A stretch of DNA of 51,148 nucleotides, from positions 1 to 51,148 of the IMG/VR virus record IMGVR_UViG_3300011116_001170; one strand, 5' to 3'. Each line of letters opens with the position of its first letter. Position 1 is the stretch's first letter. The position numbers and the translations under genes are program-made. The stretch comes from a virus. Its lineage: Duplodnaviria > Caudoviricetes. The notes under the pieces were generated by a model. That model saw only the letters and a program-made list of their open reading frames with translations. It had not been told where the DNA came from and did no database searches. Below, piece by piece: positions 6,347 to 51,148 of the stretch.

Positions 6347-7034
6347 CTCCGTGTCTATTTAAAAATTTTTCAGTAGAATCGGCGTTAGTTTGACGTCTTT
6401 TTTGGTCAGCAGTTAAAAACTGGCTTTGATTATTATTTTTAGGCTCAAAAACCCCCGTCCAGTTGCTTTTAATTGAATTTTCTAGTGATTGATTGGCATC
6501 CAAGCCTTTGTTGTGAAATTTTGTCAGCTCTTTGATTATCAACTCGATTGCTTTTTCTGTCGGCTTTGCTTTTTTTGATTTACGCATTTCTAAAAATGCA
6601 TTCCAAAGCGAAGCGTCAATAAAATTTGGGATTGTTATTTGTGATTTAGATTCTTCATTAAGATTATCATTTAGATTTACATTTACATTATTATTAGGGG
6701 TTACGCTAGGGGTTTTCTTGGGGTTAACTAGGGGTTTTCTTGGGGTTTTTTTACTTTTTGGACGACCTCCTTTAACCCCGTGTTTAGCACCTAGACAGCC
6801 ATTTTTAAATCTAGCCTTATTTGCTATCAATTGTGGTTCAATTAGCCTAAAAATTGTCTTTGGATAGCCAATTAAATCTATCAATTTTGTGTTAAGAGAA
6901 AACTCGCAAATTGCGCGATAAATTTGCAATTGATCAGCATCATCTAAATCACCAATCGCCTCAAAAAAAGAGCGATAAAAAATGAAGCTGTTGCGATTAT
7001 TTGTTGTGGTTGGTTTCATTTTTTGACATTCCAT
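6333..7034 (-). CDS. phage replication initiator (DUF6291-like N-terminus, DnaD-like C-terminus)
   Basis: NSFIFYRSFFEAI N-terminus, GGRPK, low-complexity linker, LWNAFLEMRK...SIKSNWTGVF C-terminus. Confidence 0.8.
   Translation of the reverse strand: MECQKMKPTTTNNRNSFIFYRSFFEAIGDLDDADQLQIYRAICEFSLNTKLIDLIGYPKTIFRLIEPQLIANKARFKNGCLGAKHGVKGGRPKSKKTPRKPLVNPKKTPSVTPNNNVNVNLNDNLNEESKSQITIPNFIDASLWNAFLEMRKSKKAKPTEKAIELIIKELTKFHNKGLDANQSLENSIKSNWTGVFEPKNNNQSQFLTADQKRRQTNADSTEKFLNRHGVENA
6695..6750. repeat. iteron-like repeats, probable replication origin
   Basis: Five T(A)GGGGTT units; CTAGGGGTTTTCTTGGGGTT occurs exactly at 6706-6725 and 6728-6747, next to an AT-rich tract inside the initiator gene. 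Confidence 0.65.
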
Positions 7035-7197
7035 TATTTAACATTGCACAAATATTATTCTTAAAGTGGTAAAGTATTTTCTTAACCGAGGTTTTTTGAT
7101 CGGCATTAGCTTGCATCGACTCAAGAATTGGCATTATATATCCAACAAGCCTCTTGGTTTCGTCATTGATTAAGCCTTCGATTTGATTTTGATTCAT
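6997..7197 (-). CDS. hypothetical protein
   Basis: 66-aa ORF directly upstream of the initiator. Confidence 0.6.
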   Translation of the reverse strand: MNQNQIEGLINDETKRLVGYIMPILESMQANADQKTSVKKILYHFKNNICAMLNNGMSKNETNHNK

Positions 7198-7261
7198 TGC
7201 ATGTTTGACATTAAATTAATTTCCACCACTCTCAATCTTTATTTCTAAAAGTCAAGAAAAA

Positions 7262-7500
7262 ATTGCCTTTTTACAGAAGACTAACTGACTAGAACACGAG
7301 CAGCTTTCTAGCCACGTAAAACATGAATAGAAAAGCAAAGAAATTGGCTTTCGGTGCGCGCGCACCTACTCGCCAAATTACAACTATGTTCTGGAAGTTG
7401 CCTCCGAGCTTGGTTGTGTAATGAGCTACCCAAGCTTCCCTCCTGTTTAACGACCGTCTAAGTCACGTCATTACCGAGTTATGCCTTCTTCTTTAGCCAG
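7262..7500 (-). ncRNA. structured ncRNA, scaffold-1 copy A
   Basis: Closing helix CTGGCTA/TAGTCAG, 3' hairpin GTCTT-CTGTAAA-AAGGC, internal AGUA/GAA loop-E motif; both ends shared with 47949-48141. Confidence 0.65.
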
Positions 7501-7543
7501 GCTGGCTTTCAATAGTGTCGAATTCGACACCTTTAGAATTTGG

Positions 7544-7617
7544 TGGAGCGAGGCAAGGGAATCGAACCCTTCGCTTTAGCTTGGAAGGCTAAGGTATTAC
7601 CACTATACGAGCCCCGC
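7544..7617 (-). tRNA. tRNA-Gly (UCC)
   Basis: GCGGGGC/GCCTCGC acceptor, TTAGC-CTTCCAA-GCTAA anticodon arm, GGTTCGATTCC T-arm, U73, encoded CCA with a second CCA at 7541-7543. Confidence 0.95.
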
Positions 7618-7620
7618 AAA

Positions 7621-7731
7621 AATATTCTCTAAAAACAACACCTCAAAAGTTATCAGCGATTCTTTTGCGACGCGGCTAGATGTTGTTGGACTTCATAACC
7701 TAACGCCGTGATGTTGCTTTTAGAAAATATT
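7621..7731 (-). ncRNA. long-stem ncRNA, scaffold-2 copy A
   Basis: 22-bp stem 7710-7731/7621-7642 whose three non-Watson-Crick pairs are all G-U on the - strand; outer arms identical to 47523-47718. Confidence 0.65.
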
Positions 7732-7853
7732 AAACGAAACCAGCGGGAGTTTGCTCGAGCCTCCCGCCGACCGACTAAGCCAGTTGCAACTAACTTAGCC
7801 CTAGCTCCATCACTTACGTTTAAAAGGAGAGGAATCGCTAGTCTATCTCTTAA

Positions 7854-8032
7854 GCTGATAATTTGAATAGTCCCTATCGTAGTGTGCCCTCTTTTTCTAT
7901 ACCACAAGCGAGGTGGCTCTATCTAAAAATTTATGCATGGTATTGATAAGCAATCGCTTTTAGACTTTCGGCTGTCGAAGCTTTTTCTAACGATAGCAAC
8001 GCGTTAAAAAATTCCGAATTCAAATTATCAAC
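7854..8032 (-). ncRNA. multi-branch structured RNA
   Basis: 15-bp closing stem GTTGATAATTTGAAT/ATTCAAATTATCAGC, inner CTATCGT/ACGATAG and ATACCAT/GTGGTAT helices, two TAGAAAAAG motifs. Confidence 0.55.
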
Positions 8033-8084
8033 GTTTTGAAACCCAAAAATCATGAAAAATCAGAGGAGTATCTTGGGCAATATT

Positions 8085-8163
8085 TTAAGCTGAAACGGTT
8101 GATTTTACAACATATCCCCGACTTTATGCCGATGGCTTTAATTAAGCTACTTTTTCAGCTTAA
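8085..8163 (-). ncRNA. degenerate tRNA-like cloverleaf
   Basis: TTAAGCTGAAA/TTTCAGCTTAA closing stem, TAGCTTAATTAAAGC D-arm-like, TCGGC-ATAAA-GTCGG arm, GTTG-TAAAAT-CAAC T-arm-like; no CCA. Confidence 0.45.
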
Positions 8164-8294
8164 TAAGTTGCCGCCCACTTTTCAATTCAGGCTCTGACGA
8201 ACCGACGGCAACTAATTAAAATGAAAGGGGCGGTGGATTAATGAAAAGAAACCACCGCCCAGCCGCATAAGGGCTACCCGAGGAAGGCTTTTTA

Positions 8295-8323
8295 ATTAAA
8301 AGAACTTAACTTTCCATTGTCAA
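8295..8323 (-). promoter_or_regulatory. sigma70-like promoter heading the RNA island
   Basis: TTGACA-N17-TTTAAT on the - strand immediately upstream of the first hairpins. Confidence 0.7.
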
Positions 8324-8334
8324 TAGTTTTTTTT

Positions 8335-8511
8335 TCATTTTTTTAGATTTAAAGATTGCGTAAAAGTGTTATAAATTATCTCGTAATATTCAGGTTCTAT
8401 TTCAGGTTCTATTTCAGGCTCAATCTTAGGTTCATAAAAAATAAAGAATGCAAAGGCTGCCAGCAAAACTGCGCATATCATTATTTGTAAAATATTATTA
8501 GCTAAATTCAT
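8335..8511 (-). CDS. small membrane protein with EPEI repeats (58 aa, not in track)
   Basis: MNLANNILQIMICAVLLAAFAFFIFYEPKIEPEIEPEIEPEY...; 12-bp tandem repeat; ATGA overlap with the upstream gene. Confidence 0.6.
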   Translation of the reverse strand: MNLANNILQIMICAVLLAAFAFFIFYEPKIEPEIEPEIEPEYYEIIYNTFTQSLNLKK

Positions 8512-13255: not shown

Positions 13256-13330
13256 GCCGTAGTAGCACAACAGTAGTGCATCATTCTTGTAAAATGGAGG
13301 TTCTGGGTGCAAATCCTAGCTACGGCACCA
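13256..13330 (+). tRNA. tRNA-Thr (UGU)
   Basis: GCCGTAG/CTACGGC acceptor, TCATT-CTTGTAA-AATGG anticodon arm, ACCA end; non-canonical D- and T-loops. Confidence 0.85.
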
Positions 13331-23834: not shown

Positions 23835-23850
23835 TCTTGGTTTTCGGATT
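23835..23850. promoter_or_regulatory. repeated late-region motif, copy 2
   Basis: TCTTGGTTTTCGGATT followed by TTGTTT-N17-TTTGAT upstream of the sheath operon. Confidence 0.65.
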
Positions 23851-23905
23851 TTTGTTTTTCTTTTTTAAAAATATTTTGATTTCAACATTTAATTAAATTC
23901 TGTTT

Positions 23906-30819: not shown

Positions 30820-30835
30820 TCTTGGTTTTCGGATT
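30820..30835. promoter_or_regulatory. repeated late-region motif, copy 3
   Basis: TCTTGGTTTTCGGATT between the divergent gp45-like and gp46-like genes. Confidence 0.65.
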
Positions 30836-30886
30836 TTGTTTTTTGGGATTTAAAAAATACTTTTAATCAAACATTTTTTGTAAATT

Positions 30887-32667: not shown

Positions 32668-33266
32668 GTTTTTTAGAAAATAGAAGCATCGCAACGCAAA
32701 CAAATATTCTGGCTGGTTATTTACCAAACGACGATTTGCACCAACTTAAAAATTGCGAAGGTTCAAATTTAAGAAAAGTTTTGATCGGATTGGCTTCGCA
32801 ATGGCTAGAATTTAGAAATAAAATTAATGAAGTTTTCGACGAATATAACCCAAACAATACCACCGCGCTTTTAGAAGAATGGGAAGGTTTTGTTGGCATA
32901 CCTGATTTTTGCATTTCAAACGTTGGTACGATTGAACAAAGAAGATTGAATATTTTACTTAAATTGTCGGGCGTAAATGCGACGACTAAAAAACAATTTG
33001 AAAACATCGCGGCAATTTTAGGTTACAGTGTAGTCGTTCAAACTGGAGTTGATACCTCAACATTTCCGCTTACATTGCCATTTATTTTAATGAGTGAAGA
33101 AGAAGCCCCATTTATTATTGTTGTGAAACTTCCTGCTTCTTTGCAACCAAACGGCTTTCCTTTGACTTTACCTTTTACGCTAAGTTCTGGTGCACCTGAA
33201 ATTTTGAATTGTCTTTTTAATAAATTGAAGCCAGCAAATACAAAACTTTATTTTTTATACTCTTGA
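32664..33266 (+). CDS. baseplate wedge (Mu gp48/YmfQ-like)
   Basis: LLEEWE..VGIPD.C, CLFNKLKPANT. Confidence 0.88.
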   Translation: MSFLENRSIATQTNILAGYLPNDDLHQLKNCEGSNLRKVLIGLASQWLEFRNKINEVFDEYNPNNTTALLEEWEGFVGIPDFCISNVGTIEQRRLNILLKLSGVNATTKKQFENIAAILGYSVVVQTGVDTSTFPLTLPFILMSEEEAPFIIVVKLPASLQPNGFPLTLPFTLSSGAPEILNCLFNKLKPANTKLYFLYS

Positions 33267-33276
33267 AATTCGGATT
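33261..33276. promoter_or_regulatory. repeated late-region motif, variant copy 4
   Basis: TCTTGAAATTCGGATT upstream of the tail fibre gene. Confidence 0.55.
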
Positions 33277-33333
33277 TTGTTTTTTTGTTAAAAAAAGCAC
33301 AATTTTTTTAAATTAAAACTATAATAAAAAAAT

Positions 33334-35741: not shown

Positions 35742-36142
35742 CTGAGGTTATTTCTGATTCTGAAAATACAATTATTGAAGTTGAAATCGATAAAATCAAT
35801 GTTGAGATTTTAGAAAATAACATCGATTTAAACATACAGATTAACAAAAACATTGTCGAAATTGTTAATCAAACCAATGAAGTAATCGTAAATCTTCAAG
35901 GCATCCAAGGCGCAACAGGTGATTCAACAATTTTAGGCGATTCTCCAATCTTTTCTTACAACAACGATAAAACCCTAGCTCAAATTCTTTACACTTCAAA
36001 CAACGCGACAAAAACTACAACTTATGATGGCAAGTATTTAAAATATTTAGATTCAACAGTTAATAGCATAACTACGCGTAAAGAGTTCTTTTGGAATTTA
36101 GATAATACTTTGGAAAAAATTGTTAAAACAACCTTAAATTAA
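35738..36142 (+). CDS. hypothetical virion protein
   Basis: Coupled ORF with a short Gly-X-Y stretch. Confidence 0.6.
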   Translation: MTEVISDSENTIIEVEIDKINVEILENNIDLNIQINKNIVEIVNQTNEVIVNLQGIQGATGDSTILGDSPIFSYNNDKTLAQILYTSNNATKTTTYDGKYLKYLDSTVNSITTRKEFFWNLDNTLEKIVKTTLN

Positions 36143-36143
36143 A

Positions 36144-39100
36144 ATGGCTGCTATCACATCCGCACAGTCTGGCCTTTGGTCTGCAACCTCAACTTGGGTA
36201 GGTGGTGTTGTGCCGGGCATTGCGGATACAGTAACTATTGCAGCTACTCACATAGTCACGCTAGATGGAACAGTTGTAACAGGAGGTGATACGGCTACAG
36301 GCTTCGTGGTTCGTGGTACGGTGAAAGCATCGCGCACTGTCAGTTCCTCTCTCACGGTGCGGGCTAACATCAACGTAGCGCAAGCTGATGCTGGGTTAGA
36401 TTTCGGCACAAACAGCGACCCGATCCCGCAAGGCATCACCGCCGAACTTGTTGTTAATGCGAGTGCGACCCCAGCGGGTGGCAAATACAACATTTCGCAG
36501 ACTGTAAACGGCGTCTCCTTTCGCTTCTGCGGCGCACCAAAGACCCGCAACGCTTTCCTGACCGCGCCTGTGTCGGCTGGTGCTACATCCATCCAAGTGA
36601 CCAGCACATCGGGCTGGGTGGTGGGCGATAGCCTATTCTTGGAGCAGCCGACCAACGATGTTGCACAAACGCAAACCGTCACCATCACCTCAATCTCTGG
36701 TACGACTGTCGGTGTCTCTGCCGTCACGCTGGCCCGTGTGTCTGGTCTGGCTGTCAGCAACATCAGTTGCAACGTGCTTATTCGGTCGCAGGTAGACACA
36801 TCTGTTTCAGCCAATTATTTGCAGGTTTCTTCAACTGCTGCACCAAACGGACTTGTTGAGGTCAGAAATTGCGAAATTAGAAACATTGGATACTTGTACT
36901 TAAACTGGAATAGTGGTAGCTCTGTACCACCAGCAACTCCAGCTACATTCGATTCTTGTTATCTAAACAGCACAACATCAAGTATTAGTATGATTGGCTC
37001 TACCTTTGGTAGCCTTTCAATGCCATTTCAAAACAACATTTTAATCGGTGGTATTAACTATACGCAACAAAACTTGATTCACCCAAACAACTCTTCTCTG
37101 TCCGTTTTAAACTCTGTTTTCTATAATCTTAGTTCAAATTCATTTTCGGGCGCACTTGGTTACAATGGTTTATCTGAACTCAGACTAACAAATTGCCGTA
37201 TCAACAGTTATGTTAACTGCCTAACAATTGCCAATGCAAATTCACATATATATACAAATTGCAGATTTCGCTCCAAAACCGCAGAGTTAATATCAACAAC
37301 TCTTTGTAATGTGCAGACGATTGACTGCGACTTTTTATCGCAAGGAAGCATAAAATACTTAAAGTCATACGGTAATAGTGGTGGTGTATTTTCAATGCAG
37401 AACCCAATTGTTGATGACCCAAATAAGATAAACCCAAGCGCCGTTTATGGTTTGATGAGGAATCCTGCCTATAACATCAACAACGTGTTTACCTCTAACC
37501 GAGAGTACACATATAACTCCGCTGCGATTAATCAAAATACCGTATTGAATCGAGCTACTAGAAATATTGCTTTACAGAGAAATAATTCGCAGACAACAGG
37601 TACATACACATTCTCATTTCAAGGAGTATCAGGTGTAGCACAAAGAATTATTGGGTATCTTCGCCACGATACAACTTATGGAGCATCAAATCCGCCTTCT
37701 ATTTCATTCTCAGGGGCAGGTGTATCAGGCTCGTTTACTTCAAGCACAACGGTAAACATTTGGGAGAAATTTGATATTACTTTAACCCCAACATCAACCG
37801 GAACTATTACCGCAACGGTTACTTTTGCAGGAGCAACAAATGGAACGGCTTATCTTGATGGTGTTTATCAGTTTCCTTTTATTACTGAAAACTGGATTTA
37901 TGGTTTCCAAAAACTCGCACAAGTAAATTCAGTTATTGATTCAAATATTACATTATCTGAATCAGCGGTTGCGGCATTAAGTTCATCCGCCACGTTTGAT
38001 AATGTTTATGATTCAGCAACTTATTGGAGTGTAGTTAATGGACCAACTTTAGGTTCTTACATAATCATAGTGTCCGCATCAGGAACTGACTTAAACTTTG
38101 GCTCTAATAGTGTAGTAATAGATAATGGAGCAGCTTCTAATTTTAGTTACTCAGGCACAACTGCCACAATTAAATCATCGGCTTTGACTAAAGGTGCTAA
38201 GTTTGATAATTTAATAGCTTCATCTATTACAATGACCACGCCTATAACTAACGCCACTCTAACAAGTAATGTTAGTCAAGCAACGCCAACTAACTTAACA
38301 GGCGTGACAATCAATGGCGATCTGACTTACAATACCAACACGCCTATTACCATCACTTTGACCAACTGCGCCATCAGCGGCACGATCAGCAACAGCGGCA
38401 CGGGTTTGGTTACGATCAATTTAACTAACTCAATAATTGGCTCAACTGGCTCAAATGTTATTTCACGTCTAACAACATCTTTAACAATTAATGGTTTAGC
38501 TGCTGGTTCTCAAATTTACATTGCAACTGAAGCTGGCACGCAAGTCGATTATGTAGCTTCAAGTGGCACTAGCTATACGCTTGACACAACTGGTGGAACT
38601 GGAACGTGGATTTACAAAGTTGCGCGCTATGGCTATATTTCGCAAAGTGGAAATCATTTGCCAGCAAACGCAAACACTACTATTTCAATTAGCTTGATTG
38701 CTGATGTATTTATTACGCAAGCAACCAAAGCAACTGTTGGGTCATATACTACACTTGAAAATCCTGACAAGATTTATGATTACGCAGCCTATTTTGAAAC
38801 GACAAACGCGGGCATTGTAATTTCACGCGTTATTTCAAAAGCAGCAACTTTTGCAAGTGCTGGCTCTTACGCATTAGTTTTAAATAACACTGGCGCAGTT
38901 TGGGATTTAACAAGCGGAATTTTAACTTTAAGAATTACAAATAATTTTGTTGGTGGCTCTACAATTACAGGCGGTTTGCTCACAACTGGCGCGATTACTT
39001 TAAATGCTCAAGCTTCAAGTGCTGGCAATTATGCAATCATAAGCGGCAATTCAATTTCAATTTTTGCCGCAAATTATCAAAACCTTGTTGCCATAGCTTC

Positions 39101-42601: not shown

Positions 42602-42778
42602 ATGAAAAAAGTTATAGTTCTTAACGGCGCAAATAAATTATATTTTCCATTTGCGTTAATATATGCATTTTTGATTATGCAACTATCTTTAATAGCAGCT
42701 TTTTTCATCTCATTATTTAGGTGGCAATTACCAAGTAATTTTCAGTTTATCAACAAAGAAATTAGCAAAGAAAAATGA
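42602..42778 (+). CDS. small membrane protein (58 aa, not in track)
   Basis: MKKVIVLNGANKLYFPFALIYAFLIMQ...; ATGA overlap with the nuclease gene. Confidence 0.5.
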   Translation: MKKVIVLNGANKLYFPFALIYAFLIMQLSLIAAFFISLFRWQLPSNFQFINKEISKEK

Positions 42779-43218
42779 AATCTTCAATTTGTTTTTTATT
42801 TTTTTCGTTATGTTTTTTTAGCTATTCAATAACTTCCGCTTTGTCGGCAAAAATTGAGTTAAAAACCTTAAATTGGAAAATAATTGAAGCAGTTGACGGA
42901 GACACTTTAAGAATTGAAATACCTTCGATGTTGCCTTTGAAATACTCAATTAGAATCAATGGAATTGACACTCCTGAAAAAGCTGGTCGCGCTAAATGTG
43001 AAAAAGAAGCTTTGCTTGCAAAAAAGGCTTCCGAATTTACAAAGGTTTTAGTTAATAATTTAAAATCTTTTAAAATAACTAACGTCAAACATGATAAATA
43101 CGGCGGCAGATTACTTGCTGATGTTGAAATAAATAATGTTGACGTTGGTAGAACTTTAATAAAAGAAGGTTTTGCTAGAGTTTATCATGGCGATAAAAAG
43201 CTAAGCTGGTGTAATTAA
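42775..43218 (+). CDS. thermonuclease (SNase-like) with signal peptide
   Basis: VDGDT, IRINGIDTPE, DKYGGRLLA, LIKEGFARVY. Confidence 0.93.
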   Translation: MKSSICFLFFSLCFFSYSITSALSAKIELKTLNWKIIEAVDGDTLRIEIPSMLPLKYSIRINGIDTPEKAGRAKCEKEALLAKKASEFTKVLVNNLKSFKITNVKHDKYGGRLLADVEINNVDVGRTLIKEGFARVYHGDKKLSWCN

Positions 43219-45707: not shown

Positions 45708-46009
45708 TTAGTTTGTAATTTTTTCTTTAATTCTAATGGGCAGAAATTTATTTTAAATACCAGTTTATCGTTTTCAAATTTTATATCATAAATTTTTAGA
45801 ATAGGCGTAATCATCACGCCTCTTTGCCAAATACTATATTCCCAGTAATCTAAGAATCTTCTTTGGTGCATTTTAATTCCATGCCAGCGCAATTTTCCTT
45901 TTGTAATTTCACCTTTGATTTTTGCTATAAATACAGCGCATCTTATCAAATCAGATTTTAGCTCTTCTTGCATATTATGAATTTTATGAATGTCTTGTTT
46001 GTAGTCCAT
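45704..46009 (-). CDS. hypothetical protein
   Basis: 101-aa coupled ORF. Confidence 0.65.
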   Translation of the reverse strand: MDYKQDIHKIHNMQEELKSDLIRCAVFIAKIKGEITKGKLRWHGIKMHQRRFLDYWEYSIWQRGVMITPILKIYDIKFENDKLVFKINFCPLELKKKLQTK

Positions 46010-46566
46010 TATCTAATTTCCCCCCCGTTATCAATTAGTATCTGCAAATTTTTTCCTCTGTAATCGTCAACGTAATTTTTTTCTCCATCTTTATCGAGAC
46101 TAAAAACAACAAAATCTTTTTCGTCAATTGCGCCTTCTTGACAAACTTTAACTAGAGATTGAATCATTTCGCGCGAGTGAGTTGTAGCAAAAATTTGAAC
46201 ATCGTTTTCAATTGTTGCCGCAATAACATTAAGCCAAAAATCCTTCATAACGCTATGGTGCAAACCATTTTCAATTTCTTCAAATAAAAATATTTTTTCT
46301 TCTTTTTTAAAATAGTTCAAAACTAAATCGCGCGCTTGTGGCTTAAAACCAAGTTTTCTAAGGCTTCTATACTCCGAAACATCTTTGTAATATTCTTCAA
46401 AAATATCAGGAAAAATTACTTTGTTTTCATATTTTTTTTTTATGCTTTCAAGTATTGCGGTTTTTCCAGCTCCATTTTTACCAACCAGCAAATTAATGCG
46501 TTTGCAATCATTAATTTTTAGATCTTTAATGCTGTGATAATTTTGAATGTGAATGTCTTTAATCAT
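46009..46566 (-). CDS. miniature ABC/AAA_21-type ATPase, copy 1
   Basis: GKNGAGKT Walker A, FEEIENGLH Walker B/D-loop, TTHS H-loop; only about 55 aa between A and B. Confidence 0.85.
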   Translation of the reverse strand: MIKDIHIQNYHSIKDLKINDCKRINLLVGKNGAGKTAILESIKKKYENKVIFPDIFEEYYKDVSEYRSLRKLGFKPQARDLVLNYFKKEEKIFLFEEIENGLHHSVMKDFWLNVIAATIENDVQIFATTHSREMIQSLVKVCQEGAIDEKDFVVFSLDKDGEKNYVDDYRGKNLQILIDNGGEIR

Positions 46567-46792: not shown

Positions 46793-47353
46793 TCATTTTT
46801 TCTCTATAAATTTACAAAATTGTTCCGAACTAAATTCTGTTATATTGTGTAAGCAGGGGTCACCATCACGCATATTTCTTCCTTCTTTAATAAGCTGATC
46901 AGTTGCCCACGATTCAAATTTCATTACACCATTTCCTTCTTCGTTTTTATGAAGCCGATAAACCCTAATTTCTTCTTGCTCAATAAGATTGGTTTCTTCC
47001 GCTGCTTTAACCAAAGCCTCCATCATCTCGTGAGAATGAGTTGTAGCAAAAATTTGAAAATTATTAGCTAACGCCATTTTAATAATGTAACGCCAAAAAT
47101 CCTTCATAACGCTATGATGCAAACCATTTTCAATTTCATCAAATAAAATAATTTTTGAATCTTGGTTTGTTTTAAAAGCTCTCCACGAAGAATAAAATGG
47201 CGCATATTCTTTGTGGTAAGATTGTTTTATAAATTCTAAAACTGTTGTTTTTCCAACTTCATTTTTCCCGACTAGTAAATTAATCCGTTTGCAATCATTA
47301 ATTTTTAGATCTTTAATGCTGTGATAATTTTGAATGTGAATGTCTTTAATCAT
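46793..47353 (-). CDS. miniature ABC/AAA_21-type ATPase, copy 2
   Basis: GKNEVGKT, FDEIENGLH, TTHS; only about 30 aa between Walker A and B. Confidence 0.85.
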   Translation of the reverse strand: MIKDIHIQNYHSIKDLKINDCKRINLLVGKNEVGKTTVLEFIKQSYHKEYAPFYSSWRAFKTNQDSKIILFDEIENGLHHSVMKDFWRYIIKMALANNFQIFATTHSHEMMEALVKAAEETNLIEQEEIRVYRLHKNEEGNGVMKFESWATDQLIKEGRNMRDGDPCLHNITEFSSEQFCKFIEKK

Positions 47354-47505
47354 AAGCTTTTAGTTTTCTCATTAATTCTAATTTTTCTTTTTCAAAATCT
47401 GTTTCTAAAATTTGCTTCCACCCTTCATTTCGCTTTTTTACATCAAGCCGAGCAAGAGTAAGAACTTGTTTAACATTTTTCCCCTCAACTTCGACTTGAG
47501 CATTG
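47286..47505. repeat. 220-bp direct repeat, copy 2
   Basis: Identical by eye to 46499-46718 (offset 787). Confidence 0.9.
47346..47505 (-). pseudogene. 5'-truncated copy of the small partner gene
   Basis: Same C-terminus as 46559-46792; the only start (TTG 47549) lies inside an RNA stem. Confidence 0.55.
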
Positions 47506-47522
47506 CCGTTAAAGTTTTTATT

Positions 47523-47718
47523 AATATTCTCTAAAAGCGGCACTGGCAAAGGACTTTCACCTTTGCATTTGCTTAGACAGCTTCACACTAGTATTATTGC
47601 CATCCACAAGAGTATTGCTTCTGTTTATCCTACTTTTTGCAGTTTTCGGATTGTGAGTCATCTTTCGAGCCTCTACATAGTGTCTTATTCCACCACAGTG
47701 CCGCCATTAGAAAATATT
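47523..47718 (-). ncRNA. tRNA-Leu-like RNA with about 110-nt insert, inside scaffold-2 copy B
   Basis: GCGGCACTG/CAGTGCCGC stem, TG-GTG-GAATAAGA-CAC D-arm-like, GCAAAGG-TGAAAGT-CCTTTGC T-arm-like, outer AATATTTTCTAA/TTAGAGAATATT. Confidence 0.65.
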
Positions 47719-47885
47719 GGTGGAAGGGGTAAGATTTTAACTTACTAAACCAAATCAATCTAAAATATTTAGGGTAATTAATCCAACATTTTAAACATGA
47801 TTAGCGGGTAATTAATCCGCTTACTGGTGATTTGCCTACTGGTCGACCGCTGACAAATTGGCATTAACACTCGCCCACCCTTACC
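47718..47885 (-). ncRNA. expanded type-II-tRNA-like RNA ending in ACCA
   Basis: GG(T)AAGGG/CCCTTCC acceptor, GGC/GCC D-stem, ATTTGTC/GGCAAAT stem, GTAAG-TTAAAAT-CTTAC T-arm, ACCA; giant variable region. Confidence 0.65.
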
Positions 47886-47887
47886 AT

Positions 47888-48142
47888 AAAAACGAAGCCA
47901 GAACGCGCCTAAACGACGCAATAACAAATGTGTCCTGACTTCGTAGATTTGCCTTTTTACAGAAAGGCTAACTGGCTAATCTTGAACTTACGAAAGCGAT
48001 GATCGTAATTAGCTTGCTCGTATCAGAGGTTTTGCATTCAATATCACTAGCAAAACGTAACCGCTTGATGATTGAAGCCCTTTCGGGCAATTTAACTAGC
48101 TCAACTTGCGTCGTCTAATATTTCTACACTCTTCTTTAGCCG
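47888..48142 (-). ncRNA. pseudoknotted ncRNA, scaffold-1 copy B, with terminator-like 3' hairpin
   Basis: GGCTAA/TTAGCC, GCCC-GAAA-GGGC, GTTTTGC/GCAAAAC, TTACGA/TCGTAA, 13-bp hairpin plus U-tract, 12-nt long-range complementarity. Confidence 0.7.
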
Positions 48143-48152
48143 TGCCGATTGA

Positions 48153-50892: not shown

Positions 50893-51105
50893 TTAAATTT
50901 TAAATCCTTTAAAAAGACTTTTTAGCTCTTCTTTGTTTGGTTGCTCATCAAGAGATTTGCCAAGATGCCAATCAGTCCAATCTACACCTTTTGAACCGCT
51001 TACAACAATTTGAACAGTATCATCATCAGTAAGTTCAATTCTTAAATCGTCTTCGTCTTTCTTTGCTAATTTAATTATTTTAGTTAAATATTCTTCTAAG
51101 TTCAT
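50893..51105 (-). CDS. hypothetical protein
   Basis: 70-aa ORF following a copy of the exonuclease 3' end. Confidence 0.65.
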   Translation of the reverse strand: MNLEEYLTKIIKLAKKDEDDLRIELTDDDTVQIVVSGSKGVDWTDWHLGKSLDEQPNKEELKSLFKGFKI

Positions 51106-51148
51106 CTACTCCCCCTTAATTTTTGTTAATATCTCATCACACATTGTT
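51101..51148. repeat. imperfect copy of 228-275 (exonuclease 3' end)
   Basis: 46/48 identical by hand alignment. Confidence 0.9.

Follow-up and report, generated by a model that had tools for sequence, protein, structure and literature searches.

Arrays of structured RNA modules with shared end-pieces in an uncultured freshwater phage genome

Two islands in an early gene block

The window, by which we mean the whole stretch of DNA that was analyzed (51,148 nucleotides), belongs to a small uncultured freshwater myovirus of 51 kb, which encodes RecT and YqaJ and whose capsid protein is at most ~32% identical to its top-ranked matches among isolated phages. Within the early, leftward gene block lie two islands, island 1 at 7260–8323 and island 2 at 47520–48145, in which predicted minus-strand RNA structures are combined with two recurring scaffolds, hereafter also termed frames. 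From the promoter to a downstream box, with z denoting folding stability relative to shuffled sequences, island 1 reads as follows:

8295–8323, minus: promoter-like site, with the −35 element TTGACA at 8323–8318, a 17-nt spacer, and the −10 element TTTAAT at 8300–8295
8083–8290, minus: module Ma, a promoter-proximal structured RNA (MFE −69.2 kcal/mol, z −4.1; plus strand −60.3)
7848–8082, minus: module Mb, 235 nt, with a weak fold signal (z −1.6), cleanly missing from a close relative
7735–7847, minus: module Mc, two to three hairpins (z −3.6 on the minus strand versus −1.0 on the plus)
7621–7731, minus: scaffold-2 unit, a 22-bp closing stalk around a 60–70-nt interior (z −6.8)
7544–7617, minus: tRNA-Gly (UCC), called by ARAGORN and scoring 56.9 bits with the Rfam tRNA model against a gathering score of 29
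7502–7543, minus: palindromic hairpin separating the scaffold-1 unit from the tRNA (z −2.7)
7263–7501, minus: scaffold-1 unit, consisting of a 5′ hairpin (7482–7501), an interior, and a 3′ motif (7263–7287)
7216–7259, minus: conserved box just downstream of island 1 and upstream of a 66-aa ORF (6997–7197)

Island 2 has four parts:

47949–48145, minus: scaffold-1 unit, consisting of a 5′ hairpin (48126–48145), an interior termed cargo A, and a 3′ motif (47949–47974)
47888–47946, minus: module M1, a long hairpin (z −5.8), with homologues in contigs L013, L010, and L027
47719–47887, minus: module M2, a multi-helix RNA with an invariant core (z −1.4), with homologues in L013, L026, and L016
47523–47718, minus: scaffold-2 unit, a 12-bp basal and a 9-bp inner helix around a 150-nt interior (z −4.9)

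The TTGACA-N17-TTTAAT promoter that a first-pass annotation had placed ahead of island 1 is present to the letter (8323–8295, minus), and the stretch 8083–8332 is kept in close-relative contigs. A promoter scan of the window did not call this site because its −10 element, lacking an A at position 2, is non-canonical. Sigma-70-like promoters can likewise be read from the sequence just upstream of units in L004, L012, L022, L030, L034, L035, and L070; as a rule the frames have no promoter, and only some adjoin one. The tRNAs lie within the arrays or next to them, in the same orientation. Module Ma, which is kept with indels in relative contigs, includes a 9-bp GC hairpin (8228–8260) lying ~50 nt into the presumed transcript, with a U-rich run behind it, and a comparable feature is the palindromic hairpin that follows the tRNA-Gly. 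Transcription could stop at either of them, and a single long precursor is thus not assured. Shine-Dalgarno use is mixed, and weak hints of the host come from motif-bearing contigs found in MAGs labelled Rickettsiales, Ca. Fonsibacter, and Peribacteria.

Coding content, composition, and folding

Neither island contains a credible ORF, a claim of the first-pass annotation that the ORF listing and Pfam bear out. The longest ORF across 7035–8510 has 84 aa (7653–7907, minus, TTG start), and the sole ORFs of island 2, of 81 and 85 aa, both lie on the plus strand and start with TTG. A Pfam search of five small island ORFs returned no family at E ≤ 1, which rules out small-peptide genes as the island content for the five tested. 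The islands had also been described as richer in GC than the genome; the rise is genuine and modest, reaching 0.434 at 7501–8000 and 0.392 at 47501–48000 compared with mostly 0.28–0.38 elsewhere, and it is not peculiar to them, given that 36001–37000 exceeds both at 0.46–0.50. Individual modules span 0.36–0.54.

Folding is both stronger than expected and strand-specific. Six of the 11 modules have minus-strand z values of −3.6 or below, down to −6.8, relative to shuffles; the remaining five range from −0.46 to −2.66, among them the genuine tRNA at −1.02 and, at −0.46, the scaffold-1 unit of island 2. Four coding controls gave −0.75 to +1.4 on the minus (coding) strand and −1.17 to +1.42 on the plus. 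The minus strand is the more stable in 10 of 11 modules, by 16 kcal/mol in the island-1 scaffold-1 unit (z −2.1), the exception being the island-2 scaffold-1 unit. The imperfect pairs of the helices are mostly G-U when read on the minus strand, as had been remarked at the outset, and would be A-C on the other; the fold z values agree. The minus strand is thereby supported as the RNA sense of the islands. Single-sequence z is weak for Mb (−1.6), M2 (−1.4), and the island-2 scaffold-1 unit (−0.5).

The proposal that these are RNAs gains further from homologues that show covariation. In alignment A1 of cargo A, comprising nine homologues, 99.4% of the cells of the 40 pairs are paired and 10 of the 40 pairs are compensatory, a count matched by none of 500 shuffles and by no slid control (≤2). 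Compensatory pairs number 7 of 49 in the alifold of four M2 sequences, 7 of 29 in that of three Mc sequences (homologues in L032, L026, and L072), and 1 of 18 in that of three M1 sequences. The interiors show GNRA-capped helices, a likely pseudoknot, and T-arm-like hairpins. On these predicted folds each island is a string of structured-RNA modules of 60–240 nt that are independent of one another and closed on themselves, and the two arrays together hold at least 10 such modules.

Known RNA families and database searches

Rfam 15, searched at gathering scores over the whole window, recovered nothing beyond two tRNAs, and within the islands the tRNA-Gly is the sole match; the islands otherwise lie outside the Rfam families, in line with the initial failure to recognize one. 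Relaxing the threshold to E ≤ 10 on both strands of both islands produced no credible match; the stray hits, RAGATH-27 among them with 22.9 where the gathering score is 76.1, fell far below threshold and on the wrong strand. The models of GOLLD and ROOL match neither strand of either island at gathering score or at E ≤ 10; those of the known self-cleaving ribozymes and riboswitches yield nothing near gathering scores in either island, and the islands have no Rfam match to Y RNA (YrlA). Over 12 related loci (118,607 nt), Rfam finds only tRNAs. Among isolated phages, blastn matches island 1 only at the tRNA (11 records) and island 2 not at all. The 51-kb record contains no TROVE (Ro60) domain, no RVT_1 (the reverse transcriptase of retrons and DGRs), and neither Y1_Tnp nor an integrase. 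Some of the island modules may already figure, unnamed, among the 8,495 candidate structured RNAs that the available text of Fremin et al. (2023) describes as predicted from IMG/VR intergenic regions.

The first-pass annotation saw the scaffolds as interleaved with a real tRNA and with tRNA-shaped RNAs. The former is the tRNA-Gly (UCC), on which ARAGORN and Rfam concur. The latter do not hold up in the window: run with or without intron detection, ARAGORN gives none in the islands beyond the tRNA-Gly, and neither does the Rfam tRNA model. Interiors resembling tRNA were seen only in related contigs and not in the window's own scaffold-2 units; in L007, the scaffold-2 interior scores 40.5 bits over 123 nt with the Rfam tRNA model, and ARAGORN calls it only with an intron.

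Two frames around unrelated interiors

Exactly four blocks of 12–16 nt are common to both islands, and they are the ends of two framed units:

7263–7278 = 47949–47964
7487–7498 = 48130–48141
7621–7634 = 47523–47536
7720–7731 = 47707–47718

The islands share ten 12-mers, compared with 0.23 on average and never more than 3 across 458 control windows, and the shared 16-mer has two forward occurrences and none in a reversed control. Two terminal scaffolds that recur around unrelated interiors, as originally proposed, are therefore well founded, and the two kinds of unit follow one another in opposite order in the two islands. Scaffold 1 had been taken for a single structure closing its unit; it consists instead of two separable end-pieces, given that interiors occur with neither piece or with only the 3′ one.

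The 5′ piece of scaffold 1 is a hairpin with a covarying 4–5-bp stem and a conserved loop of ~12 nt. As read from a list of stems across instances, one conserved loop type sits on GCAC/GUGC, GCCU/AGGC, GCUC/GAGC, ACUC/GGGU or GAGU, and GCAAC/GUUGC, and contig L024 carries a chimeric hairpin with one stem half from each type. Pairing between the 5′ loop and the 3′ tail, possible in the window's two units, is lost in the commonest 5′ variant with the 3′ motif unchanged, and a box C/D-like kink-turn is ruled out by the lack of covariation between the ends.

The 3′ piece is a hairpin whose loop is that of the tRNA-Tyr anticodon: the same seven nucleotides occur in the tRNA-Tyr of two MAGs that contain motif contigs, on different stems. 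Strict mimicry of the tRNA-Tyr arm is weakened by the loop variants, namely, a U-to-A change in L030 and 8-nt loops in L070 and possibly island 2. Variants of the motif retain the stem through G-U pairs. The motif is present in 30 IMG/VR contigs, often behind sigma-70-like promoters and adjoining tRNAs, and in four phage-like MAG contigs; most instances were retrieved with the motif as the search pattern, which biases the figures for its conservation. It is nonetheless conserved well beyond what a merely protective hairpin needs, which hints at a specific partner. Two other identities were rejected, a sigma-70 promoter on the grounds that the would-be −10 is not kept, and an attP copy of tRNA-Tyr on the grounds that identity stops at the 7-nt loop, no integrase is present, and each genome has at least two copies.

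Scaffold 2 is an AU-rich stalk of ~19–24 pairs between the ends of the unit. In island 1, 22 contiguous pairs join the two ends, and the arms are identical to those of island 2, which are in turn those of contig L017. The basal 12 bp are nearly invariant, and the inner helix varies in sequence between units with its pairing kept. Evidence for the stalk is drawn from these end-to-end duplexes, the interiors in alignment A3 being too ragged for pair counting. In relatives, the stalk encloses tRNA-like RNAs.

Turnover between related phages

In close-relative contigs whose flanking genes are ~95–97% identical to those of the window, 7260–7734 is swapped for 1114 other letters, and homology starts again exactly at 7259. 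To within 3 nt, this replacement takes out the scaffold-2 and scaffold-1 units of island 1 together with the tRNA and hairpin that lie between them. The same contigs lack 7848–8082, that is, Mb; the joint 7847/8083 is found in contigs from three runs of one study, and a direct repeat of ~10 nt follows both 7847 and 8082. The breakpoints between close relatives thus fall at module borders. None of the datasets listed as containing these sequences is recorded as RNA, and four runs labelled RNA-Seq contain 20-kb contigs that span genes and islands alike and are probably DNA.

Contig L072, with a terminase 97% identical to that of the window, has an ORF-free island of 0.75 kb in the same place. 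It is built from modules common to L026, L019, L009, and L039, and shares with the window only the core of Mc and the downstream box, which is present twice there and is also found in L009, L015, L019, L026, L032, and L039. Near-identical copies of the 7502–7543 hairpin occur in L003 and L030, and modules are found singly and in other orders in other contigs. Queries with neighboring proteins returned one IMG/VR locus for DUF6291 (L039, with a different island) and none for SPFH, and an alignment query in metagenome contigs returned no relative. Related phages combine the same RNA parts in different ways, a pattern suggestive of a hitherto undescribed toolkit of exchangeable RNAs.

A proposed mechanism and its alternatives

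The locus presents families of structured RNAs on one strand, spread as a mosaic among phages whose close relatives differ by whole modules. We consider it probable that the islands are minus-strand arrays of structured-RNA genes, co-transcribed and cut into stable small RNAs, with frames that also serve as recombination linkers. Each array would be transcribed from a sigma-70-type promoter, together with the tRNA-Gly and downstream genes, and the transcript would then be cut into discrete stable RNAs. Each module appears to close on itself as an RNA family of its own, with the two scaffolds acting as reusable frames. The scaffold-2 stalk, assembled from the two ends of its unit, has the form of an RNase III processing stalk, by which analogy RNase III may release the interior. 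In scaffold 1, the 5′ cap hairpin and the 3′ hairpin would mark, and probably protect, the ends of the interior RNA once RNase E and RNase P had cut single-stranded linkers or the neighboring tRNA. Being near-identical between otherwise unrelated neighbors, the frames would also serve as short homologies, which the phage RecT/YqaJ recombinase could use to swap, gain, and lose modules. As a guess, the interior RNAs may act on host tRNA-handling or translation factors.

An extension of this proposal, which we regard as quite improbable, makes the frames a standard "plug" system through which any enclosed RNA is expressed, excised, and stabilized, such that cassettes are traded like genes within a habitat and possibly serve as decoys. 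With a 3′ plug that copies the tRNA-Tyr anticodon loop and a number of interiors resembling tRNA, the cassettes could act as sponges or decoys on host enzymes that recognize the anticodon arm of tRNAs; such enzymes would include defence nucleases destroying tRNA-Tyr, an activity ascribed to the Septu/PtuAB type in the portion of the literature available.

It is unlikely that the early genes downstream have the islands as their cis-acting leaders. In such a leader, the 3′ hairpin and its A-rich tail would control transcription or translation, whether as a standby site or as a nut/put-like antitermination signal, and everything else would be structured 5′ UTR. The islands do lie between a promoter and same-strand genes, the 3′ motif of L030 comes ~25 nt after its promoter, and in 16 of 40 instances an ATG ORF of at least 45 aa starts 21–35 nt past the motif, behind a conserved A/U-rich spacer. 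However, the proteins encoded downstream belong to numerous unrelated clusters, of which the largest holds 7 of 32, with no consistent gene partner, and the motif also directly precedes tRNAs (L014, L028), other RNA modules (L010, L012, L017, L027), and a terminator-like hairpin (L023, L024). Cargo A occurs without the motif in L005, and the content of the two arrays exceeds what a leader needs.

We hold it very improbable that island 1 encodes a single giant ornate RNA like GOLLD or ROOL, working as one large particle with conserved and variable parts and a tRNA embedded in it. Its length of ~1 kb, phage location, freshwater source, and internal tRNA speak for this reading; GOLLD, in the available text of PMC12286853, has a conserved 3′ and a variable 5′ region, sometimes tRNAs in the linker, and tRNA islands nearby. 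Yet neither model matches even at E ≤ 10, self-closed modules are found singly and reordered in other contigs, a close relative lacks one module and has four others replaced, and the two framed units exchange their order between the islands.

There is equally scant chance that the scaffolds are DNA-level features, whether non-autonomous mobile-element ends (MITE-like or IS200/IS605-like) or recombination sites, with RNA structure secondary: scaffold 2 does have 12-nt inverted ends, conserved ends surround variable interiors, module-sized indels and replacements break at unit borders, and a ~10-nt direct repeat flanks the 235-nt indel, but the window has no Y1 transposase, integrase, or reverse transcriptase, the stems covary with G-U pairs on one strand only, the interiors hold the GNRA-capped helices, likely pseudoknot, and T-arm-like hairpins noted above, all copies are oriented as the flanking genes and promoters, scaffold-1 ends are not inverted repeats, and recombination at borders is equally compatible with co-transcribed RNA gene arrays.

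Comparison with known systems

Phage T4 encodes small stable RNAs inside its tRNA gene cluster, which derive from the same precursor as the tRNAs through host tRNA-processing enzymes and whose function is unknown. In the islands, too, phage-encoded non-tRNA RNAs sit among tRNA genes; unlike the T4 RNAs, to which they bear no sequence relation, they comprise many module families with standard end-pieces and are evidently swapped between phages. Leader–trailer stalks cut by RNase III are familiar from rRNA and tRNA operons, and scaffold 2 resembles them in form, as a helix of ~20–24 bp made from sequences on either side of an interior RNA. Its basal 12 bp are, however, near-invariant in sequence, which is more than a stalk needs. 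The scaffold-2 interiors of relatives recall Y RNAs and tRNA mimics in joining a T-arm-like hairpin to an acceptor-like helix that runs into a long stem; however, the islands have no Y RNA match in Rfam, the window has no Ro60/TROVE gene, and its own scaffold-2 interiors are not tRNA-like. IS200/IS605 elements and MITEs find no counterpart, the window having neither Y1_Tnp nor integrase and no target duplication being seen by eye at the scaffold-2 ends, and the record has no RVT_1 of a retron or DGR.

With GOLLD and ROOL the islands share a phage or prophage location, a tRNA-gene neighborhood, freshwater or marine metagenome sources, and an unknown function. For GOLLD in particular, where tRNAs can sit in the variable linker between the conserved 3′ and variable 5′ regions and tRNA islands are near (PMC12286853, in its available text), the context and size (>800 nt) of island 1 fit, yet the stretch splits into independent modules. 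In contrast to both families, whose models do not match, the islands consist of self-closed 60–240-nt modules in which no single conserved large core was found.

PeSLs, as far as the available text of PMC4122927 describes them, are composite motifs of promoter and terminator by which modules are shuffled in T4-like phages, and are thought to be points of homologous exchange, as proposed here for the frames. Like them, short conserved stem-loop sequences flank variable cassettes in the islands and coincide with indel and replacement borders in close relatives: the 7260–7734 replacement and the 7848–8082 loss end at module borders, and the 5′ hairpin of L024 is chimeric. By that same description, PeSL cassettes are ORFs, whereas those of the islands are ORF-free structured RNAs; the island frames consist either of a long stalk or of an RNA hairpin at each end, only some adjoin a promoter, and they belong to a 51-kb myovirus.

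To our knowledge, the T4 stable RNAs, GOLLD, and ROOL have lacked a function for decades. The islands contribute several structured-RNA families outside Rfam with covariation support and, as features not described for those three systems, shared end-pieces and module-by-module turnover between near-identical phages. This turnover offers natural gain and loss variants for comparison, conserved short handles for finding further members, and a specific hypothesis in which processing and exchange are guided by the frames. Should the interiors prove to target host enzymes of tRNA handling or defence, the arrays would parallel, at the RNA level, the protein-coding "accessory gene" islands of phages.

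Structured islands and their frames

The two islands, 1.06 and 0.63 kb in length, contain self-closed, strand-specific, covarying RNA structures set in reusable frames, namely the end-pieces of two recurrent units termed scaffolds 1 and 2. The features, whose RNA sense is the minus strand, are arranged as follows.

Island 1 (7260–8323)
7263–7501, minus: scaffold-1 unit
7502–7543: palindromic hairpin
7544–7617, minus: tRNA-Gly(UCC)
7621–7731, minus: scaffold-2 unit
7735–7847, minus: module Mc
7848–8082, minus: module Mb
8083–8290, minus: module Ma
8295–8323: promoter-like site
Island 2 (47520–48145)
47523–47718, minus: scaffold-2 unit
47719–47887, minus: module M2
47888–47946, minus: module M1
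47949–48145, minus: scaffold-1 unit, with cargo A as its interior

The first-pass annotation described the islands as devoid of credible coding capacity, and indeed no open reading frame (ORF) exceeds 85 amino acids, and five small ORFs had no match in Pfam. The GC enrichment that it reported stands as a modest rise (up to 0.43 in island 1 and 0.39 in island 2 over 500-nt windows, against ~33% genome-wide), although one coding stretch is higher: 36001–37000, the GC peak of the genome (0.46–0.50), which exceeds the RNA islands, lies at the start of a 1308-aa ORF and suggests a foreign or repetitive domain. The islands were divided into 11 modules, each folded separately with a z-score per strand. 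Six reached minus-strand z ≤ −3.6 (lowest, −6.8), and the remaining five, among them the tRNA and the scaffold-1 unit of island 2, ranged from −0.46 to −2.66. The minus strand was the stabler in 10 of the 11, by up to 16 kcal/mol, consistent with the helix-packed minus-strand RNA originally perceived; four coding controls gave z of −0.75 to +1.4 on the minus (coding) strand and −1.17 to +1.42 on the plus strand.

Exactly four blocks of 12–16 nt are common to the islands, and these are both ends of the scaffold-1 unit and both ends of the scaffold-2 unit in each, bearing out the recurrence of two scaffolds. The islands share 10 12-mers, whereas 458 control windows averaged 0.23 and never exceeded 3; the scaffold-1 and scaffold-2 units stand in opposite order in the two islands. 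RNA structures of this kind are associated with promoters and same-strand tRNAs. The promoter noted before island 1 is present in the sequence, but its −10 element is weak and it is missing from the consensus-scan list. Likewise, the tRNA-Gly is real, but no further tRNA-like element was detected in the window to match the tRNA-shaped RNAs said to accompany it. Overall, the observation is real, and the initial structural insight was largely right.

Scaffold 1 and the borders between RNAs

In RNA sense, the 5′ part of scaffold 1 is a hairpin with a 4–5-bp stem and a ~12-nt loop of type GGYUAAAGAWGA, and its 3′ part comprises CAGUUAGCC, then a 5-bp hairpin (loop CUGUAAA), and finally the tail AA. 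A pattern search with the 3′ part retrieved 30 IMG/VR stretches; in species-representative genomes it retrieved six, comprising four short phage-like MAG contigs and two chance matches to coding sequence. In the loci so retrieved, the single 5′ loop type is carried on varied stems (GCAC/GUGC, GCCU/AGGC, GCUC/GAGC, ACUC/GGGU or GAGU, and GCAAC/GUUGC), a variation that amounts to covariation and includes wobble pairs fitting the RNA-sense strand only. The 3′ hairpin varies little, and its variants retain pairing through G–U, a conservation that is overstated because most instances were found by the 3′ motif itself. In one contig (L024) the 5′ hairpin takes one stem half from each of two types, exactly the chimera expected from crossing over within the conserved loop. 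Pairing of the 5′ loop with the 3′ tail, allowed in the window copies, is impossible in the commonest 5′ variant and was rejected. The 3′ loop is identical to the anticodon loop of tRNA-Tyr in the MAGs examined; an attP origin of the motif is excluded, as only the loop matches tRNA-Tyr.

Scaffold 1 had been conceived as one framing pair, a view that its relatives contradict. In L022 and L035 the units lack a 5′ hairpin and begin immediately behind a promoter, L005 has the cargo A interior with neither part, and a solitary 3′ part is found between two tRNAs in the 175-kb phage contig L014 and immediately behind a promoter in L030. In four further contigs (L010, L012, L017, and L027) another 5′ hairpin begins no more than ~10 nt beyond a 3′ part, so that the two together also form a border between consecutive RNAs. 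A third framed unit of ~110 nt, absent from the window, lies between the scaffold-2 and scaffold-1 units (RNA sense) in L004, L021, L023–L025, and L070. Its terminal hairpin has a GAAAGA-type loop and resembles the scaffold-1 3′ hairpin in its flanks; the same ending follows a tRNA-Leu in L028.

In 16 of 40 instances, the 3′ motif is followed at a distance of 21–35 nt by the ATG start of an ORF of ≥45 amino acids, as would be expected were the islands cis-acting leaders of downstream genes. However, these ORFs bear no relation to one another, and the motif is also found ahead of tRNAs and other RNAs, which makes a leader function unlikely.

Scaffold 2 and its interiors

The ends of scaffold 2 form a basal helix of ~12 AU-rich pairs, a small internal loop, and an inner helix of 8–10 pairs whose sequence varies from unit to unit with pairing kept, for a total of ~19–24 pairs. 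The arms are identical in both window units and in the related contig L017, and a close variant occurs in other contigs. In several relatives the interior bears a T-arm-like hairpin and an acceptor-like helix; that of L007 scores 40.5 bits over 123 nt with the Rfam tRNA model, and ARAGORN calls it a tRNA only with an intron allowed. The window's own scaffold-2 interiors are not tRNA-like by either ARAGORN or the Rfam tRNA model.

Interior RNA families

By comparative analysis, the interiors form separate RNA families. Cargo A has homologues at eight other loci, aligned as A1, as well as in L070 and L005. The nine sequences of A1 support a 40-pair structure, 99.4% paired, with compensatory changes in 10 pairs; on four of five measures the real alignment was matched by none of 500 shuffles (3 of 500 on the fifth), and sliding the alignment by 1–3 columns left at most two compensatory pairs. 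One helix of this structure has a GNRA cap, and an invariant loop is able to pair with an upstream invariant stretch, a possible pseudoknot for or against which covariation does not speak. Other contigs also carry M2 (four sequences, compensatory changes in 7 of 49 pairs), Mc (three sequences, 7 of 29 pairs), and M1 (three sequences), the homologues being distributed in mosaic, with a different subset per contig. This independent behavior of the modules, together with the want of any model match, renders it quite improbable that island 1 is a single giant GOLLD-like RNA, although its size, habitat, and embedded tRNA would all fit.

Turnover between relatives

Exchange is module-sized and occurs at module borders. 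Contigs from three runs of one study, with flanking genes ~95–97% identical to the window, have 1114 other letters in place of 7260–7734, which within 3 nt is the scaffold-2 unit, tRNA-Gly, palindromic hairpin, and scaffold-1 unit. They lack 7848–8082 and retain 7735–7847 and 8083–8332; a ~10-nt direct repeat follows both edges of this 235-nt indel. L072, an IMG/VR relative with a 97% identical terminase (protein) and ~88% identical structural genes (DNA), has a 0.75-kb ORF-free island at the location of island 1. That island lacks both scaffolds, matches the window in nothing but the Mc core and a downstream box, and is built of modules also found in L026, L019, L009, and L039. The phage encodes a RecT/YqaJ pair, of a type able to recombine short homologies. 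Inverted scaffold-2 ends, together with the indels, would fit a purely DNA-level mobile element, a reading rendered just as improbable as the giant RNA by the one-strand wobble pairs, the RNA-type motifs, and the fact that no transposase, integrase, or reverse transcriptase was found in the window.

The downstream box (~30–40 nt; 7216–7259 in the window) lies after the RNA islands and before a conserved 66-aa ORF, with copies in L009, L015, L019, L026, L032, and L039 and two in L072 (2293–2322 and 2427–2461); it may be a promoter, an operator, or another border element.

Genomic setting

The window is an entire IMG/VR virus record of 51,148 nt, which CheckV rates as complete. Its plus strand encodes terminase, portal, capsid, tail sheath, tape measure, and baseplate proteins, a gene set that identifies a small myovirus; its minus strand encodes RecT, YqaJ nuclease, YopX, DNA methyltransferase, dUTPase, and many unknowns. 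Both islands lie within the leftward, early-type gene block. The capsid protein is at most ~32% identical to the top-ranked matches among isolated phages, and parts of the sequence occur in riverine, lake, and other freshwater metagenome runs. A 48-nt direct repeat (228–275 and 51101–51148; 96% identical, spacing 50,873 nt) lies near the record ends. The record probably overlaps itself, the genome being circularly permuted or terminally redundant, and the islands would therefore be only ~11 kb apart across the ends.

Further elements of the genome are the following.

46009–46566 and 46793–47353, minus: paralogous ORFs of ~185 aa each, just downstream of island 2
13256–13330, plus: tRNA-Thr(UGU), a second tRNA, between the small and large terminase genes
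42775–43218, plus: staphylococcal-nuclease-like gene
23835–23871, 30820–30856, and 33261–33297: 37-nt repeat, 70–84% identical, at three gene ends of the tail/baseplate block

The paralogues, joined by a 294-nt repeat (93% identical), match only the N- and C-terminal ends of the AAA_15/AAA_21 profiles, ATPases of the type in abortive-infection and Septu-like systems, and look like truncated or minimal ATPases. The tRNA-Thr is 95% conserved in L072 and a second relative, L071. In these the nuclease-like homologue (79% DNA identity; L071 1216–1573, L072 8329–8685) adjoins the terminase genes, and its position at 42.8 kb in the window represents a rearrangement between close relatives. The 37-nt repeat may be a late terminator or promoter motif.

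Proposed processing and function

We propose that each island is transcribed leftward with the tRNA, perhaps together with genes beyond. RNase P would release the tRNA, RNase III would cleave the long AU stalks of scaffold 2, and an endonuclease such as RNase E could cleave the short single-stranded linkers from a 3′ hairpin to the next 5′ hairpin, after which the terminal hairpins would shield the freed RNAs. The sequences of the 5′ loop, 3′ hairpin, and basal stalk hardly vary, which suggests a specific partner, either protein or RNA, and the tRNA-like interiors and tRNA-Tyr-type 3′ loop point loosely to host tRNA-handling factors as the interiors' target.

Relation to known systems

At gathering score, Rfam 15 finds only two tRNAs in the whole window, in agreement with the earlier impression of no known family. 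All other matches in both islands fall far below threshold in permissive mode, twelve related loci yield tRNAs only, and a nucleotide search of isolated phages with the islands found the tRNA alone in common. A narrow literature search on pelagiphage noncoding RNA, phage structured RNA and tRNA arrays, and anticodon stem-loop mimics or decoys found no description of the frames. By its own account, an intergenic screen of IMG/VR yielded thousands of unnamed structured-RNA candidates (Fremin et al., 2023). Single modules may already be among these anonymous candidates. The islands represent a set of undescribed families of structured RNA that share frames and turn over in the manner of cassettes among uncultured phages of freshwater.

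Three systems are closest in kind, and the islands belong to none of them. The T4 tRNA cluster encodes small stable RNAs. GOLLD and ROOL are described as ornate, tRNA-adjacent phage RNAs (PMC12286853), from which the islands are set apart because no Rfam model of either matches them. For the exchange aspect, the closest are the PeSL cassettes of T4-like phages, which the islands are not, because these cassettes, as their report portrays them, have ORFs and a promoter/terminator composite (PMC4122927).
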